Below, piece after piece: positions 16,461 through 26,172 of a stretch of DNA of 64,000 nt. Under the pieces are notes generated by a model. That model worked only from the letters and a program-made list of their open reading frames with translations. It was not told where the DNA came from and ran no database searches. The position numbers and the translations under genes are program-made. Within the stretch, counting starts at the first letter, position 1. Every line of letters starts with the position of its first letter. Origin of the DNA: Eledone cirrhosa. Lineage: Eukaryota. The stretch lies in contig OZ024743.1 of the NCBI GenBank assembly GCA_964016885.1, positions 192,448,001 through 192,512,000 of the forward strand, written 5' to 3'.

Positions 16461-19375
16461 AAAATATTCAAAATACAAATATTGAATATAAAATTATATA
16501 GTGTCACGCAGACTAAAATAGAGAATGTGGACAGAGCTGGCGATTTGAATTACAGGTTTAGTCCATCAGTTTTTGCCTAGCCAATTTCCCTCACAAGGCT
16601 CTAGCTGCCTTTACACACAAAGTAAGCAAGGGAGAGAACTTTTGGTCTTTTTTTATTTTTTTAATCAATTTAAGACAATGAAATGTGAATGGGCCTTGTT
16701 TATAAGCCATTTTGTGAAAGCAACGGAATGTTTCTGTCTTAGCTCTCCTCAGTGAAGAATATCTATCTAGAAAATTGGATAGACTAAGATATAGATATGA
16801 GAAAGATAAAAATACTGCATTGATTATGTGTGTCAATAAAGTGTGAGGCAAAAATGCCTTAGGGAAGCGCTATGCATGAAGTGTACACATACAAATAATC
16901 TCGCAGTTTGAATATGACAAGTTGGGTGAAACTGAAACCAACTGAGGCTATCTACGCAGTTTGAGGGGTGTTCAAGTAGTAAGTAGAGGACGATGGCAAC
17001 GATGATGATGTAGAAAAGAAACTACTTCATGGTATCTCACACCAGCAAGTTTTCTTTTTGTAACCAATTACTTTTTCCCACAGGCATGCAGATTCCCTCT
17101 TCCTCTCTCTCTTCCATACTTCATCTATAAAACAAACAGACACACACACTGATTTGCTGTCAGTCACTTTGCTATACTTCAACTATAAAACAGAGAGAGA
17201 AGAAATTCGTTCTCCGTTTGTCTTTCACACATCAACTATAAAACACAGAGAGAGAGAGAGATTTTCTCTCAGTCTCTTTCCTATACTTCAACTGAGAGGG
17301 AGAGAGGGGGGAGTCGTTTTTCTACTCTTCCATGCTTCTACTATAAAACACACATATATACACGCAATCTTTCTTTTTCTCTCTCTCAATAACTCACTCA
17401 CTTCAACAAAAACATACAACTGTATGCTACAACCCACTCGCATACACTTATCAATGCTCTCAGGCCACCATTTCCACATCCTACTCTACCCCATCCTTTA
17501 CATGCTTGTTATCCATACAGAGATCCTAATTAAAGATAATAACAATGACAATACACAGAATGGAAGTATGTTTCAATGATTTATCTAAACACACGACAGA
17601 CAACACAGAAACTGAATGAAAATACAAACACGAATTTCAATCAACCCATCAACCAACCAACCAGTCAACCAACAAACCAAGAAAATATAACAATACCAAC
17701 AACAAAAGGTAGAGGAGTATTTAAATATGGCTAGATGAAGACAGTTAATACAGAATAGTATTATATCTTTACGCAATGAACAGATTAAAAGCGGAGGAGA
17801 AAATGTAAATGTCTTTTGTAGCCAGAGGCTGTTCTTTAAGACTAGGATTTGTTTCAAGTGAATGAGAGATCATTATCATCGCTATCTAGGTCGTTGTCAT
17901 CATCATTTTTACAACTTCTTGCTGGTATGGGTTGGCCAAGACATTTTGAGGCAGTTTCTTTCTTTTCTTTTTTCTACTGGAGTTGTAACTGATAACTAGT
18001 AACAGTAATGTAAAGACCAACGGAAACAGCTTACTTATCCAGTCTGAAGGTTGGCCCCTTTTCCGCTTTTGTTTCTTTTCAAGAGCCAGGGACCCTTCCT
18101 GACAACAGGAAATATAAGTATGACAAGGTATACACCTCTGACCCTCGTCAAATCCCTGAGTAGCAGAATGATGTGAGACCTAGATAAATGTTATCACTTT
18201 CTTTAACTGTGTGGAGATGAAGATATACATGAAGACATGATATTTATATACTTTTATTGGTTTGAGTCATCCAGCTGTAATCCTCCTGAAGCACAACCAT
18301 GAAGAGTTTAATCCATCAGATAAACTCCAGTACTTATTTTGAAGTCTGGCACTAATTTTATCAATCCTATTTGTTGAACTTGTGGGGGCACGTGGCCTAG
18401 TGGTAAGAGTGTTGGACTTATGATCATAATGTCTTGGGTTCAATTCCTGGGCTGGGTTGTGTGTTGTGATCTTGAGCAAAACTTTTCATTTCATATTGCT
18501 CCAGTACCCTCAGCTGAAAATGAGTACAGCAATTGCTGGGGGTTTAACCCTGTGATGTACTGGCATCCTGTCCAGGGAGAAGTCTTGTACTCTCAGTCAT
18601 TTCATGTTAGGATAAGCACCGGTCTAATGAGCCTTCTGGGTGAAGACAGACTTTATTTGTTGAACCACTAAGTTATGGGACACAAGGAATCAACACAGTT
18701 TTTATTTTTATTGGTGTCAACATAGACACATAATTTTCCCTTCACAGACATGTATTAATCCTTCTGTTACCACATTTCTTGTTATTTTAATTAATTTTGA
18801 AAAGTATCAAGAGATAACTTTCTTATCAAGTTTGGAACAAAACTTACCAAAAGTTCTGACATAAAATTATGATGGAAGGTTTTTCTGGGAGACATAAACA
18901 CTTTAAAATAAGCAGTCTAGTATCATAAAACCACAGGTAGTATCAGACAGTTTGGTATCAAAAGGGGTAATTATTCAGTTTTTCAAACACACAGGGAGGG
19001 GTGTATGTTTGTCTCAGTGTCTCATTTAATAACATCACAACATTAATGACCCACGTGCCAAGTATTTTTAATAACAGCCCTGCAGGTACCACTTAATTCT
19101 TTTTGACAACAAAATTCACCTTTACACCATCTAAAGAAGATATAATTAACTTCATTATACTTAATGAACACATACAGTGGTGGGAGTTGGTGCACAGAAT
19201 ACAAAGACAGACAAAATATAATGAGGCACTTATGTCTGGCTGCCAATGGTTCATTGCTTAATTAAAAAATCATTACTGTTATTGTTATCATCCTCATAGA
19301 ATTAGTGCTTCTCCAGATTTGATTGCATTTTCAGCTGAATTTAGTCTCTCTAACTCTCTCCCTCATTTATTTATT

Positions 19376-19411
<36 letters not shown>

Positions 19412-19553
19412 GTTAAAGTCTGTCTCAAGCCATCAGACTTATCTCTGGCTTCAATTTTTGTTCAGCATTAAGCGACTGAGAGTATAAACGAAGTGATATA
19501 TATATATGAAATTTACTGCTAGAAAACACACCCGCTGAGGCTATAGAACGCAA

Positions 19554-19745
19554 GACTTGTTGACAAAGTAAATCCTTTGTTCTGTCGTCAAAGGCCATTA
19601 ACTTGCAGACCCCTGCAAGCGGAATTAGTCGATCTCGGATTTACAGAAACCTAGCATGGATGTTGTATGTTATATGTGATGTATATTGTATGCTATACGA
19701 TATGCGTTATATGTTGCATTCGATCTCCGCACGATGGTCCAGGTC
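19554..19745 (+). ncRNA. Type I hammerhead ribozyme, U3-A8 core variant with expanded stems II and III
   Basis: Stem I GACTTG(19554)/CAGGTC(19740); core TTGACAA (19560-66); A.A mismatch then stem II GTAAATCC/GGATTTAC; GAAA 19646-49; stem III ACC/GGT; GUC site at 19737-39. Confidence 0.65.
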
Positions 19746-20677
19746 AGTCCAAATCTTTCCCTGAGTTCAGTCTTTTTCGTTGCTATGGCAATGCGGCTGG
19801 ACTGCCGGTCACTATATTTGATTTGCAAAGCTGTCTAAACGTATTGTTATAACTCTGGGGTATTATTCTCCATCGAGTGCTAAGCTGCATTCCGAATCTG
19901 CATTCGTTAGCTTAGCCGCAGCCTAAAGCTTCGTTAATGCTGTACTAAAATTTGTATATATATATTGTTATACTTTGGGAGGGTCATGTTGCCAATAAGA
20001 AACACACGCACCAGTTGCTTTCACTTCAATTTATTATATTGGCAACATGACCCTCCCAAAGTATAACAATATCGGTTTCAACACACGATTTCAGATAAAG
20101 AATCTTGCTAAACAAATTCAGAAACGATATATATATATAAGCTGTATAACAAAGTGCAGGGCAATAAAGATAGACGGTAGCCACGGAATAGGCAGACCTA
20201 GAAAAACATGGGATGAGCTGATAAACTCTGACCTCACACACTTACACCTCTCCAAGACAATGTCACTGGACCGAGACCTTTGGCGGTACTCAGTAACAGA
20301 GAAGACCCGCCTTGCCAGTAGGCATCTCTAACAAAATACACCCCGTCCCGCCACCACCCCCACCCCATCCACACCACCCCGTTCTATGTAAAGTTATGTT
20401 GGTGCCGCGCCATCCAGGCCGAAACAAATGAGATCGTGTAGGTGTCACGACAAAAAAACACACAGTCCACGCTGTAATGTGGCCGTGTAGGCAACACGGT
20501 AAAAACCTCCCAGACCCACACTGTAAATGTGGTTGGTGTTAGGAAGGGCATCCAACTGTAGAAAACCTGCCAGGCAGTCCTATGCGAGCAAGAAAATCAC
20601 TCTTGCCTCAAGTGGGACTACCCCCGTCCAAACCCATGCAAGCGTGGAACACGGACGTTAAACGTTGATGATGATGA

Positions 20678-20726
<49 letters not shown>

Positions 20727-20867
20727 GTAATAATAGTAATAATAGTAATAATAATAAATTTGAAGACTAAAATCCAAAGAGGGCTCGATAAGGATAAATA
20801 TATATCAAATATATAAGGAATATATATCAAATGTATAAGAACCGTAGAGCAAAAATCTGTTATTTTA

Positions 20868-20927
<60 letters not shown>

Positions 20928-21126
20928 ATTTATATAATCTGTTATTTTAATAAATATATATATATATATATATATTTTTTTTTTAACATGTCTATTGAGC
21001 ACTCTAATTCGATATGTGTATTTCCACATTCACTCGAATTGTTTTCGCGGATATAGGGGTCATCTCCCTTGTCTAATGCCATGTGCGTTTTTCACCGCTA
21101 GTTGACTCCTCTGCCGCCAGGAAAAA

Positions 21127-21261
21127 ACTCGTTGATAACGTAAACTCCATTCCACTTACTCTAGTAGGCTTTTATATTTATATGTGAGCTGATAGAGTAC
21201 AGTCTAAGGATTTACAGAAACCCATGAAGCTAGATTTAACACCTTTCTAGTGGGTCCGGGT
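21127..21261 (+). ncRNA. Type I hammerhead ribozyme (U3-A8 variant), copy 1 in the 615-bp unit
   Basis: Stem I ACTCG/CGGGT; core TTGATAA 21132-38; C.A mismatch; stem II GTAAA(C)TCC/GGATTTAC; GAAA 21217-20; stem III ACCCA..CTAGA/TCTAG.TGGGT; GUC with predicted cleavage after 21256. Confidence 0.75.
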
Positions 21262-21741
21262 ATGATTTTACATTCATTTAAATTATTGACGTATTGTTTT
21301 ATTGATATTTTTTATCTGTTTGGCCCGAATCTTCCTTTATCGATTTTAAATCGTATGGTTGATTGTAGACTTGTTCTATATGTGACGGTATTTTAACGAT
21401 AGTTATAGCTCTGATTCATCTGAATTATTGAGCCCTCTGCCGCTCATATCGAATTTCGTTTATCGTGAACTCGTGCGCCGATTTTTCGATACTCGATCTT
21501 TCTAATATATTTAGCTCTGGACATAGCTATCCACCAGTTAATTTTATTGCTCATTTTTTGTCGTTTCTATTGAGTGATGAATAGCTTTTGTTTTATTTTA
21601 ACATGTCTATTGAGCACTCTAATTCGATATGTGTATTTCCACATTCACTCGAATTGTTTTCGCGGATATAGGGGTCATCTCCCTTGTCTAATGCCATGTG
21701 CGTTTTTCACCGCTAGTTGACTCCTCTGCCGCCAGGAAAAA

Positions 21742-21876
21742 ACTCGTTGATAACGTAAACTCCATTCCACTTACTCTAGTAGGCTTTTATATTTATATGT
21801 GAGCTGATAGAGTACAGTCTAAGGATTTACAGAAACCCATGAAGCTAGATTTAACACCTTTCTAGTGGGTCCGGGT
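21742..21876 (+). ncRNA. Type I hammerhead ribozyme (U3-A8 variant), copy 2 in the 615-bp unit
   Basis: Same sequence as 21127-21261 shifted by 615; predicted cleavage after 21871. Confidence 0.75.
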
Positions 21877-22159
21877 ATGATTTTACATTCATTTAAATTA
21901 TTGACGTATTGTTTTATTGATATTTTTTATCTGTTTGGCCCGAATCTTCCTTTATCGATTTTAAATCGTATGGTTGATTGTAGACTTGTTCTATATGTGA
22001 CGGTATTTTAACGATAGTTATAGCTCTGATTCATCTGAATTATTGAGCCCTCTGCCGCTCATATCGAATTTCGTTTATCGTGAACTCGTGCGCCGATTTT
22101 TCGATACTCGATCTTTCTAATATATATATATATATATAAATAACCTTTTTTCCTTTCAG

Positions 22160-23680
22160 GTACAAAGAACCTCTCAACCCAAGGAAATAACAGCTACTGT
22201 CAAGGTACAAATCTCAAGACTGCCACCCTCAATGTTGGCACCCTGAAAAGTAAATCAGGTAAAATTGTGGAACTGTTAGAGAGAAGAGAAGTAGATGTAT
22301 GATGTGTACAAGAAGTGAGAGGGAGAGGTACCTCAGTGAGACTAATCACAGACAAACAACAGAGATATAAACTTTACTGGATAGGTAATGACGATGGAGT
22401 AGGAGGTATAAGCATCTTACTAGCTGAGAAATGGGTAGATAAAGTGATAGAGGTATTAGAGTAAGTGACAGAATCACCAAGCTTAGAATAGCTGTAAGAA
22501 ATAGACTGGTGACAATTACATCTACCTATGCTCCACAGGCAGGACTAAGTAAAGACCAAAAGGACAGGTTCTATGAGAAACTTCACAGACAACTTCAGGG
22601 ACTGATGAAAGAGACCTCATCTTCCTGGCAGGCGACTTAAACAGACATGTGGGACAGTACCAAGACGAATTCTGTGGAGTTCACAGCAGCTATGGCTATG
22701 GCTTAAGAAATGAAGAGGGTTGGAGACTCCTGGAATTCTATGGCACGAATGAACTAACCATTTGCAACAAAAATTTCAAGAAATCAGCCAGCCACCTGAT
22801 CTCATATGAATCAGGTGAACACACAAGCCAAATTGATTACTTACTCATAAGAGGAGATTAACAGATTGTAATAAATACTAAGCCCTTCCCTGGGGAAGAA
22901 TACACTGCCCAACACAAGTTAGTTATTAGCGCCATCAAAATAAACACAGAGCAGAACAAGATATGCAGGAAAATATGGAGACGGAGGGTTTGGAGGCTAA
23001 AGGACCTTTCAGTTGAATATAAGTTTAGAAAGGCACTACAGGATGCAGTAAATGAGAGGGGTGAGAGCTGGGTATATATTACATAGAAGACAACTAAAAA
23101 TTCCTATGTGACAACCTTTTGCAATCTACTGATGAGACTTTTGGCTGGAGTAAAGCACTAGCCAGACAGGGTGACTAAATGGTGGAACAGCACAGTGGAT
23201 AGACCTATTAGAGCCAAGAGACAGGCATAGAAAGACTGGAAAAATGGTGGTAGCAGAGACCAGTATTCCCACTGTTGACAGCAAAAGACTTCTCCCCACA
23301 TACAAAAGGCTGGCTGTATAACACCTGTGTGCAAAGTGTGATGCTGCATGGTATGAAACATGGACAGTGACTGCAGAAGACATGTGTAGACTGGAGAGAA
23401 ATGAAGCAGCCATGCAATGTAAATGTGAGAGAAAAGCAGAGTTTGGATGAACTGAAGAAGTTGGGTTTAAGAGGAATCAGGGGTGGTGTGCAAGAGAGAA
23501 GACTGCATTGGTACAGACATGTGATGCACATGGAGAAAGACCTGAGCAGAGGTAGTGAGAGCTGACCTTAAATCACTGAGACTCACAAAGAAGATGTCAA
23601 AGAAACACAGTGAGTAAAGAGATGCTGTGCTGAAAAAAACCCATCCAACTCTTGCAAACATGGAAAAACAGCTGTAAGAT
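22160..23680 (+). mobile_element. RTE LINE remnant: AP endonuclease region joined by an internal deletion to the 3' end
   Basis: ATLNVGTL, VQEVR, YAPQ, AGDLN, GYGLRNEEG, QIDY; after about 23265 it switches to C-terminal motifs (ETWTV, RLERNE). Confidence 0.85.
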
Positions 23681-25138
23681 GATCTTGGTAGTGTACAGAG
23701 GAGGAAGAAATCTCAATATTGATAATAGAGTATATGTAATTTTATTCATTCAGTTTCTTACATCATAGTTATAGTAAGTTCACTAAGCTTCTTCAGAGAA
23801 GAGCTGTAGTTTTATCCAGGTTTCTCAGCTATTTAGTTTTATACTATCCACACAAAATATATACATGCACACATAAGTTACTGTTTTTTTTTTTTTTTTT
23901 TTTTGTAATTATTATTATTATTATCATGTGTGAAATAATAGTGATGCAGAGATAATAGTGATGATGATAGATCCTCTGTTGGTTTTGATGGGAAGTACTC
24001 AATTTTCCAATCAACTAGACATCTAACATATAAATGAATGTACACTTGTACATTCATAGATACATGTAGTCTCATCATAACTTTTCAACTGAATCAGCAT
24101 AATATAATTGTTTCTACTTTAGGCACAAGGCCAGCAATTACCCAGTGCATTACTGGTACTTTATTTTATCGACCCCGTAAGGATGAAAGGCAAAGTCAAC
24201 CTCGGCGAGATTTGAACTCAGATCATAAAGGGACGTAACTATGCTGGAAAGCATGGCGTCCGACCCTCTACCGATACTGCCAATCCACCGCCCTTAGCAT
24301 AATATAATATGTGACAATATGATACAGGTACAAACCATCCAACAGGCTTCTACACTGTTGATGTCTATCCAATTTTCTCACAAGGCTTCGGTTGATTAGA
24401 GATTATGGCAAAGAAATTTGTTCAAGGAGTCGCATGGTGGTATTGAACCTGGAACCTCATGACTGCAAAATGAACTTTTTAACTACTCAGTCATGCAGAG
24501 AAAATAATACATATTTGATATACAGAGATGTGCAATAATGTAAGACCAATCCCAACTTATAATAACTGAAAAACCAATCCCAGTTTATAATAATAACAGA
24601 CATGGGAAAAAAAAAAAAAGTGACTGCTCCACAAATCTTTTCATACAAATTCTTGACCTCATCATCATCATCGTTTAACGTCTATTTTCTATGCTAGCAT
24701 GGGTTAGATTGGTTTGTCCCATTTAGAGGTAAGTTGGATCGGGTGTCTGTGTCTCACTCATATAGGGCAGTTTCTGGCTGGTTTTCTATGGGGTCGATAA
24801 AATAAAGTACCAGTAATGCACTGGGTATTTGCTGGCCTTGTGCCAAAAGTAGAAACAATTATTAGGGTGGAAGAAAATTTAAGGAAAGATTTTAAGAAAA
24901 AAATATATTAAAGCTACTAACAATATTTATATTTGTTGATTATTCAAAGTTGACGTTAGAAAGGGCATCCAGCTGTAGAAACCAAGCAAGAATCAGTCCT
25001 GTATGAGCAAGACATGGTCACCTGACCTAGCATAGCCCACAACAGGACAACCCGTCTAACCAATGCTAATGTGGAAAATGGACGCAAGATGAAGGGTGAT
25101 GATGATGTATGTATATACACACAAATATACACACACAC

Positions 25139-25661: not shown

Positions 25662-26172
25662 TATATATACATACTACTGTACGTCTGTATACATATATGT
25701 ATGTACGTGTACATACTTATATTTAAGTAACAGCCGTACTAAGAGTGGGAAATTAAATTTCATTTCATTTTTTCCGTTTATCGTTTTCGGTGCACCCGGC
25801 CGATTAACCCACTCGATATGCAAATTGGGCTACTCAGCCGTTAATATGCATAAGGTAAGTATATACGTTCAACAATCTGGCAGGAAGGTATACGTTGCTG
25901 ACGATAGCTAATAAGCTTGAAACTAGTACAGCGTTCCTTTGTCAGTGTTGAACAAACGAGCAACGATGGTTGCTAGACACTACGGCTTAATACGGGATGT
26001 TTGTTTACAAACACACCGAGCATTATAATAAATGTTCGGTGAATCCAAACGTTATATATACATACTACTGTACGTCTGTATACATATATGTATGTACGTG
26101 TACATACTTATATTTAAGTAACAGCCGTTCTAAGAGTGGGAAATGAAATTTCGTTTCATTTTTTCCGTTTAT
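25662..26172 (+). mobile_element. Retrozyme-like element: 391-bp unit plus about 120-bp partial tandem repeat in (TA)n
   Basis: 25662-25781 recurs at 26053-26172 with about three substitutions; one central HHR. Confidence 0.75.
25892..25934 (+). ncRNA. Minimal type I hammerhead ribozyme
   Basis: ACGTTG-CTGACGA-T-AGCT(aata)AGCT-T-GAA-ACTAGT-A-CAGCGT; palindromic stem III; GUA site. Confidence 0.85.

Follow-up and report, generated by a model that had tools for sequence, protein, structure and literature searches.

A tandem non-coding insertion between (TA)n tracts

The window analysed here comprises 64,000 nt of the Eledone cirrhosa genome (assembly GCA_964016885.1, contig OZ024743.1, positions 192,448,001 to 192,512,000 of the forward strand) and contains, at 20981..22125 (+), an insertion of 1145 nt flanked on both sides by (TA)n tracts. 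The insertion consists of 1.86 tandem units, is truncated at its 5' end and closes with the fixed 3' end of its family. A 5'-truncated unit of 530 nt (20981..21510, +) is followed by a full 615-nt unit phased to the family's 3' end (21511..22125, +), and self-comparison found zero mismatches between 20981-21510 and 21596-22125 at an offset of 615 nt, confirming the 1.86-copy, 615-bp non-coding repeat that a first-pass annotation had described between (TA)n tracts. The 5' target tract consists of (TA)n and a short T run (20868..20980, no strand assigned), the 3' target tract of (TA)n spans 22126..22138 (likewise unstranded), and a target-site duplication is not readable within these flanks. The fixed 3' end does not coincide with the predicted cut site but is set back from it by 254 nt, where the unit contains a short TA-like stretch (22118..22125, +) that would be the internal start of reverse transcription.

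The predicted cut-to-cut monomer (21257..21871, +) is a non-coding segment of 615 nt with a GC content of 36%, from which a circle would be formed. In any frame of the circularised unit the longest stop-free stretch is 62 codons, and, unlike autonomous Penelope-like elements, the unit has no reading frame for a reverse transcriptase with GIY-YIG domain. A tRNA scan returned no match, nor did a promoter scan, the consensus of which was bacterial and not apt for this animal DNA. Contigs of three public runs (X7, X9 and X10) join back on themselves at 615.

To the right of the insertion, the window carries a LINE endonuclease-type reading frame, degenerate and interrupted by stops and shifts of frame (22140-23500, +), which we take to be RTE, and at 19963-20069 the inverted ends of a TA-flanked repeat form a long hairpin, on which Rfam microRNA matches fall far below gathering scores. 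Hammerhead-like motifs with the canonical CUGANGA core occur elsewhere in the window at 25898 (+), 32298 (+), 45741 (+)/45653 (-), 60460 (-) and 61059 (+); several lie in TA-flanked repeats, one as an inverted pair, and relatives recur in many of the fetched loci.

A variant hammerhead motif in each unit

Both copies carry a type I hammerhead motif, the first (21127..21261, +) with a predicted cut after C21256 and the second (21742..21876, +) after C21871. The GUC triplets end at 21256 and 21871, one unit apart, and the helices were located as previously claimed. On the plus strand, motif 1 comprises stem I (21127-21131/21257-21261), the core UUGAUAA from U3 to A9 (21132-21138), stem II (21140-21215), G12 to A15.1 (21217-21220) and stem III (21220-21255). 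One base is unpaired on each side of the stem II foot (C21139 and A21216), and pair 10.1-11.1 does not sit directly on the core, with A or C following A9 and an invariant A preceding G12; beyond the unpaired bases, stem II begins with G-C in 16 of the 17 aligned sequences. For 21120-21270 the structure of minimum energy is the one with three helices, with a z of only -1.70 against shuffles, 11 of 200 of which were equally stable, so that folding energy alone is weak support; judged from the sequences, the real evidence for a hammerhead is conservation more than folding energy. Predicted stem I has a pair probability of 0.74-0.80 in a 151-nt context, at most 0.09 in two longer linear contexts and 0 in the circle, a modelled loss that may protect the circle from recutting or may reflect slow cutting. 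An Rfam scan of 19000-24000 gave no hammerhead match even at E<=10, and the earlier statement that a CUGANGA search would miss the motif also proved correct.

Conservation was assessed on the window motif and 16 relatives hand-picked from the first 100 of the 5,388 genome matches to a U3-A8 search pattern (control 18), with sister subfamilies serving for the covariation test. Core and GUC are invariant in 17/17 sequences (G5, A6, A9, G12, A13, A14 and GUC throughout), while N7 and the stems vary; the search pattern fixed U3, A8, GAAAC and GUC, whose invariance is therefore partly by construction, and left free the stems and the extra A before G12. On a structure drawn by RNAalifold from the same alignment that was scored, 92.4% of 355 cells are paired, compared with 25-54% in slid-partner controls, and 10 of the 21 pairs show changes on both sides among the 17 sequences. 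These double changes sit in stem II and outer stem III, and stem I varies on one side only. Covariation is almost absent among young copies of the 615-nt family, so the check for it that had been proposed lacked power there and found its answer in the sister subfamilies.

Across the fetched loci the canonical C3-G8 core is absent. When the search left both positions 3 and 8 open, U was invariably seen at position 3, and position 8 was A in 456 units and G in 39, with no other base (counts that include overlapping fetches). The 39 U3.G8 units come from 14 fetched loci, 12 of them distinct, and this core is fixed throughout arrays, among them one with at least 16 units; the U3-A8 pattern is matched by 339 of 361 full units, and U3.G8 accounts for 18 of the 22 misses. 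From these sequences, a 3-8 pair seems to be kept, and the spread of U3.G8 indicates either that the wobble works or that cutting is dispensable. An A8G change alone, which had been put forward as a null control for cleavage, is unsafe, since U3.G8 is fixed in whole natural arrays. Such arrays were seen in both a young and an older subfamily (L238, L276, L180, L197, L201, L207, L208, L268 and others), and the one at L180 has its 5' end exactly at the cut site.

A young and dispersed family

Within the genome examined (3.0 Gb, 1,796 contigs), a DNA search with the unit gave 189 matches from the 37 scored of 665 candidates, those listed being 99-100% identical and spread over many contigs. The copy number asked about in the first-pass annotation can now be given from exact patterns, each with a control of 0: 1,028 core copies and 751 canonical 3' ends genome-wide, the latter on both strands, and hence a family of at least 751 insertions. 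A further pattern, also with a control of 0, matched 3,262 hammerheads of the wider clade. All but one of the 37 best arrays (36) have an identical terminal base next to (TA)n, with 5' ends at scattered phases, and the fetched loci hold 116 canonical 3' ends and 2 others. Fixed 3' ends combined with truncated 5' ends are a mark of target-primed reverse transcription. Two-armed insertions are rare in the 615-nt family (L034; 2 alternative ends versus 116). Sister subfamilies have units of ~575-625 nt that are ~66-78% identical over alignable parts, and a matching 3' end position was read by eye in at least 8 sister copies among those listed.

A sample of 99 consecutive loci on contig 1, of which 7 were censored by gaps or fetch limits and 8 had lengths taken from coordinates, has a median length of 798 nt; 36 loci are shorter than one unit, 38 hold at least two units and 11 at least ten, the last at ~98% identity to the window unit, and the longest arrays reach ~19 units. 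Taken from its copies in the assembly, the element is real, young, abundant, dispersed and mobile.

TA tracts act as insertion hot spots, as observed at L057, L033, L143 and L163, where different retrozyme subfamilies and Penelope ends are stacked in shared tracts. In public data, the runs listed as containing the unit include none from RNA, and contigs of seven runs provide the presence of the unit and unit-length joins only. The single 645-nt contig of run X2 fits tandem DNA as well as it fits a circle, and run X14 (word share 0.18) holds short pieces only. Ten coded organism labels in runs X1-X13 carry 0.2-0.8 of the unit's words, although these labels may not correspond to hosts. For organism G, contig run X9 contains the unit and the raw Hi-C run X17 gave 0 reads in the ~1% of the run covered.

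Penelope-like elements and a candidate partner

The genome contains 10,596 GIY-YIG candidates (150 scored) and long Penelope reading frames of several types, with Neptune-like and other Penelope families also present. The U3-A8 pattern additionally matched a family in which hammerheads lie 3,118 bp apart around an ORF of 718 aa that carries DKT, YRDD, CxCx5C and, at its C terminus, a GIY-YIG-type motif. Copies of this family are 93-99% alike, and its hammerhead combines a U3-A8 core and a GUC site with a stem I of 5 bp and with stems II and III that are long. A Pfam search with the ORF returned no match, and its assignment was made by motifs. According to 10.1101/2021.04.23.441226, all families of the Hydra clade insert in (TA)n, a target that other Penelope clades also favour; the 718-aa element was assigned to the Hydra clade because its motifs and (TA)n targeting match the description of that clade. 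An apparently intact, young Hydra-type element with U3-A8 hammerheads and tandem pseudo-LTRs occupies L147 2660-7040 (G000:C1:11227660-11232040), with its ORF at G000:C1:11229082-11231238; its 5' arm is inverted, and its 3' end occurs at two alternative places ~80 nt apart.

No DNA similarity was detected between the 615-nt unit, or three sister units, and five Penelope elements tested (of 10,596 candidates), and the unit and the Hydra-type element share ribozyme architecture only. Because the ribozyme plan is shared but DNA similarity is not detectable, a Hydra-clade Penelope-like element is the likely, rather than the proven, mobiliser of the 615-nt unit.

At L048 (60-1392, -), an inverted Hydra-type Penelope fragment adjoins the 5' end of an array in a direct fusion. 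This co-insertion was rejected as proof of partnership, since the fragment is only 91-94% like the candidates scored (40 of 4,690), and the canonical-core hammerhead motif of its family counts further against it. The other non-TA 5' junctions adjoin unrelated repeats.

Copy ends at the predicted cut site

Sub-unit copies at the contig-1 loci cluster at 230-254 nt. On the reverse strand genome-wide, with each locus counted once, 80 TA-joined 5' ends fall within a 30-nt window comprising the cut and the positions behind it, compared with 6 in a more AT-rich control window downstream and 12 in one upstream. Of 68 modal units, 67 contain the anchor for the cut window, 61 that for the downstream and 59 that for the upstream window, and after correction for them the excess at the cut is 12-fold over the downstream and 5.9-fold over the upstream control. 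In four of five boundary-pattern matches the copy begins precisely with the base that follows the cut; the remaining one was rejected as a truncation, being a C17A point variant. In a zone of 226-254, which was fixed after part of the data had been seen, the 99 contig-1 loci have 12/89 ends in pass 1, 3/49 in pass 2 and 2/190 in later passes (Fisher P 3e-5, first pass versus third and later). Most piled-up ends lie 8-24 nt behind the cut, with exact-site starts numbering only 4, and the pile-up is explained either by trimming of the cut 5' end during joining or by a first-pass stall at folded RNA. Arrays of several units show a slight excess of 5' ends within the final 120 nt of the unit (window 21411-21510 and the corresponding part of every unit), a region with short TA-like stretches.

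Uniformity within arrays

The 68 fetched arrays with at least two full units (361 such units in total, with double counting of up to four arrays that were retrieved as two pieces) traverse the cut site repeatedly and do not stop there. The difference between units is 0.51 inside an array and 9.0 from one array to another, and the 68 arrays represent 39 distinct modal unit types. Private variants, absent from the modal unit of every other array, are fixed in all full units of 16 arrays, and at L054 and L058 they extend into partial and terminal units, whereas the 63 within-array variants are mostly confined to a single unit. Given this uniformity and the private fixed variants, each array looks as if it had been copied from one monomer.

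There are exceptions to a single-monomer origin. One variant is common to L043 and L046, in both of which it occupies the third-last unit; this is the sole same-rank sharing seen, and together with the 3/49 stops at the second cut site it means that multi-unit linear templates exist. Unit types are interleaved within the arrays at L189 and L252, where some local recombination or assembly mixing has occurred, and variants are shared by neighbouring units at L237, L239 and L266. The same-rank variant, the second-site stops and the interleaving at L189 and L252 therefore suggest that mixed templates and some local recombination are likely.

Proposed cycle and alternative explanations

We consider it probable that the 615-nt family is a young non-coding tandem element with a U3-A8 hammerhead, the self-cut monomers of which would be partly circularised and copied into (TA)n by a Penelope-like enzyme. 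In this cycle tandem arrays would be transcribed, the predicted ribozyme would cut after GUC to release 615-nt monomers, and a host ligase would close part of them, following the model of PMC7229834. A Penelope protein, probably of the Hydra clade, would then nick (TA)n and begin cDNA synthesis at an internal point of the RNA that lies 254 nt behind the cut. With a linear cut monomer as template, the cDNA would run off after at most 254 nt and yield the copies of 230-254 nt, and on a circle it would go round until drop-off and yield near-identical arrays of up to ~19 units, with partly cut dimers and trimers as likely minor templates. More tentatively, the copies may be a fossil record of both templates, that is, of cut linear monomers (230-254 nt) and of circles copied up to ~19 times round. 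If true, they would constitute genomic evidence for germ-line cutting by an animal hammerhead with a U3-A8, and even a U3.G8, core, and a Hydra-clade enzyme would reverse-transcribe an RNA circle that is not its own by a rolling-circle mode, beginning at a fixed internal site.

The same ends and arrays could arise without a circle if a slow ribozyme maintained two pools, with long arrays stemming from uncut read-through transcripts and short copies from cut monomers. The variant that L043 and L046 have in common at the same rank and the second-pass stops (3/49) fit such templates, as does the disfavouring of predicted stem I in long contexts, and PMC11167929 reports unprocessed RNA to be the predominant template of an anole element in vitro. 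We nevertheless hold this to be unlikely: with 39 modal types in 68 arrays, private fixed variants in 16 and a within-array difference of 0.51, every array would need a single-unit bottleneck, same-rank sharing was seen for one variant only, and beyond pass 2 copies cease to end at the cut site instead of doing so at a constant rate. It is improbable, in our judgement, that the hammerhead cuts little and owes the retention of its fold to a structural or protein-binding role, with the pile-up produced by stalling of reverse transcriptase in the first pass. The placing of most ends 8-24 nt behind the site, the spread of U3.G8 arrays, the unpaired bases flanking the stem II foot and the lack of an Rfam hammerhead match would all suit such a fold, but catalytic positions and GUC are invariant in 17/17 sequences while N7 and stems vary, four copies begin exactly at the cut, and U3-A8 ribozymes are reported to be active in vitro (PMC3088659).

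Arrays might also have grown in place like satellites, by insertion of one or two units followed by unequal crossing-over, as modelled in 10.64898/2026.07.22.740005. Interleaved types at L189 and L252 and neighbouring shared variants at L237, L239 and L266 are what such growth would leave, yet most of the 63 within-array variants sit in a single unit, private variants reach terminal and partial units, and 11 of 99 loci already hold at least ten units at ~98% identity to the window unit, making this origin quite improbable for the family. The identity of the two window copies over 530 nt could finally have pointed to an assembly artefact or to chance, a concern raised when the locus was first annotated. 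For the family this is refuted and practically out of the question: hundreds of dispersed tandem loci have distinct flanks, the best genome matches are 99-100% identical, and contigs of other public runs, X7, X9 and X10, contain unit-length joins at 615, so that the duplication is genuine. Copying of cut and partly circularised monomers remains our preferred account.

Comparison with known systems

The best reading of the sequence-level features, namely tandem hammerhead units that are non-coding, dispersed and accompanied by Penelope elements, is that the element is a non-LTR retrozyme, a known class. As a whole, the first-pass interpretation held as regards retrozyme identity, with copy number, covariation and the pile-up of 5' ends at the cut site supporting a retrozyme-type element with a U3-A8 hammerhead, and the points of novelty that it attached to the core and to the length were weaker than claimed. 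The U3-A8 hammerhead is described as natural and active in vitro in PMC3088659, and PMC4209133 had already published about 1,300 hits with this core in Penelope hammerheads of Schistosoma mansoni. A unit of 615 nt exceeds the 170-400 nt of PMC7229834, but it does not lie beyond the known animal retrozymes, falling within the 51-972 bp reported in 10.64898/2026.07.22.740005.

Like the animal non-LTR retrozymes described in PMC7229834 and 10.64898/2026.07.22.740005, the family has non-coding tandem units of low GC with one type I hammerhead each, dispersed as dimers to multimers alongside Penelope-like elements. It differs in its U3-A8 core (U3.G8 in some lineages), a 78-nt stem II region, a 36-nt stem III and a 1x1 loop at the stem II foot. 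Expression and circles have been shown for animal retrozymes and are predicted from DNA sequence for the 615-nt family. Circle-templated reverse transcription by Penelope enzymes is a published model for these elements (PMC7229834; PMC4209133), and 10.64898/2026.07.22.740005 both proposes a Penelope origin of retrozymes and reports that 8 of 9 Xenopus retrozyme dimers showed no cleavage in vitro. In the literature searched, neither the 615-nt family nor the ending of retrozyme copies at the cut site was described; supplementary material to PMC7229834, PMC4209133 and 10.64898/2026.07.22.740005 may list similar elements.

With the Penelope pseudo-LTR hammerheads of PMC4209133 the unit shares, besides the U3-A8 core, an extra base after A9, a short stem I and a proposed circle model. 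Those motifs are described there as minimal and dimer-dependent, whereas the 615-nt unit has a full stem III and an extra base also before G12, and it lacks an ORF. The (TA)n targeting and hammerheads are in common with the Hydra-clade Penelope-like elements of 10.1101/2021.04.23.441226, but those are autonomous, with a ~3.1-kb unit and a 718-aa ORF in this genome, compared with a unit without ORF here, and they often have the inverted 5' arms that are rare in the 615-nt family. More than 3,000 hammerhead motifs of one clade, together with those of the Hydra-type family, escape canonical-core searches in this genome.

The Poseidon element of Anolis resembles the family in starting reverse transcription inside the RNA in vitro and in its AT-rich targets (PMC11167929). 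For Poseidon, the same source reports two start sites, insertion in vitro that did not require hammerhead cutting and an absence of RNA-seq reads beginning at the cut, whereas the 615-nt family has one dominant end (116 versus 2). Whether Penelope and retrozyme hammerheads cut in vivo during transposition, and whether the circle is the template, can both be tested on copy ends here, because the family is young and large enough. For in vitro assays it also supplies a defined RNA with a fixed start site, together with a candidate enzyme, and an enzyme able to copy RNA circles processively into (TA)n sites would have possible use as a tool. Ultimately, set beside these systems, the element class itself is known and the value of the family lies in its end statistics.
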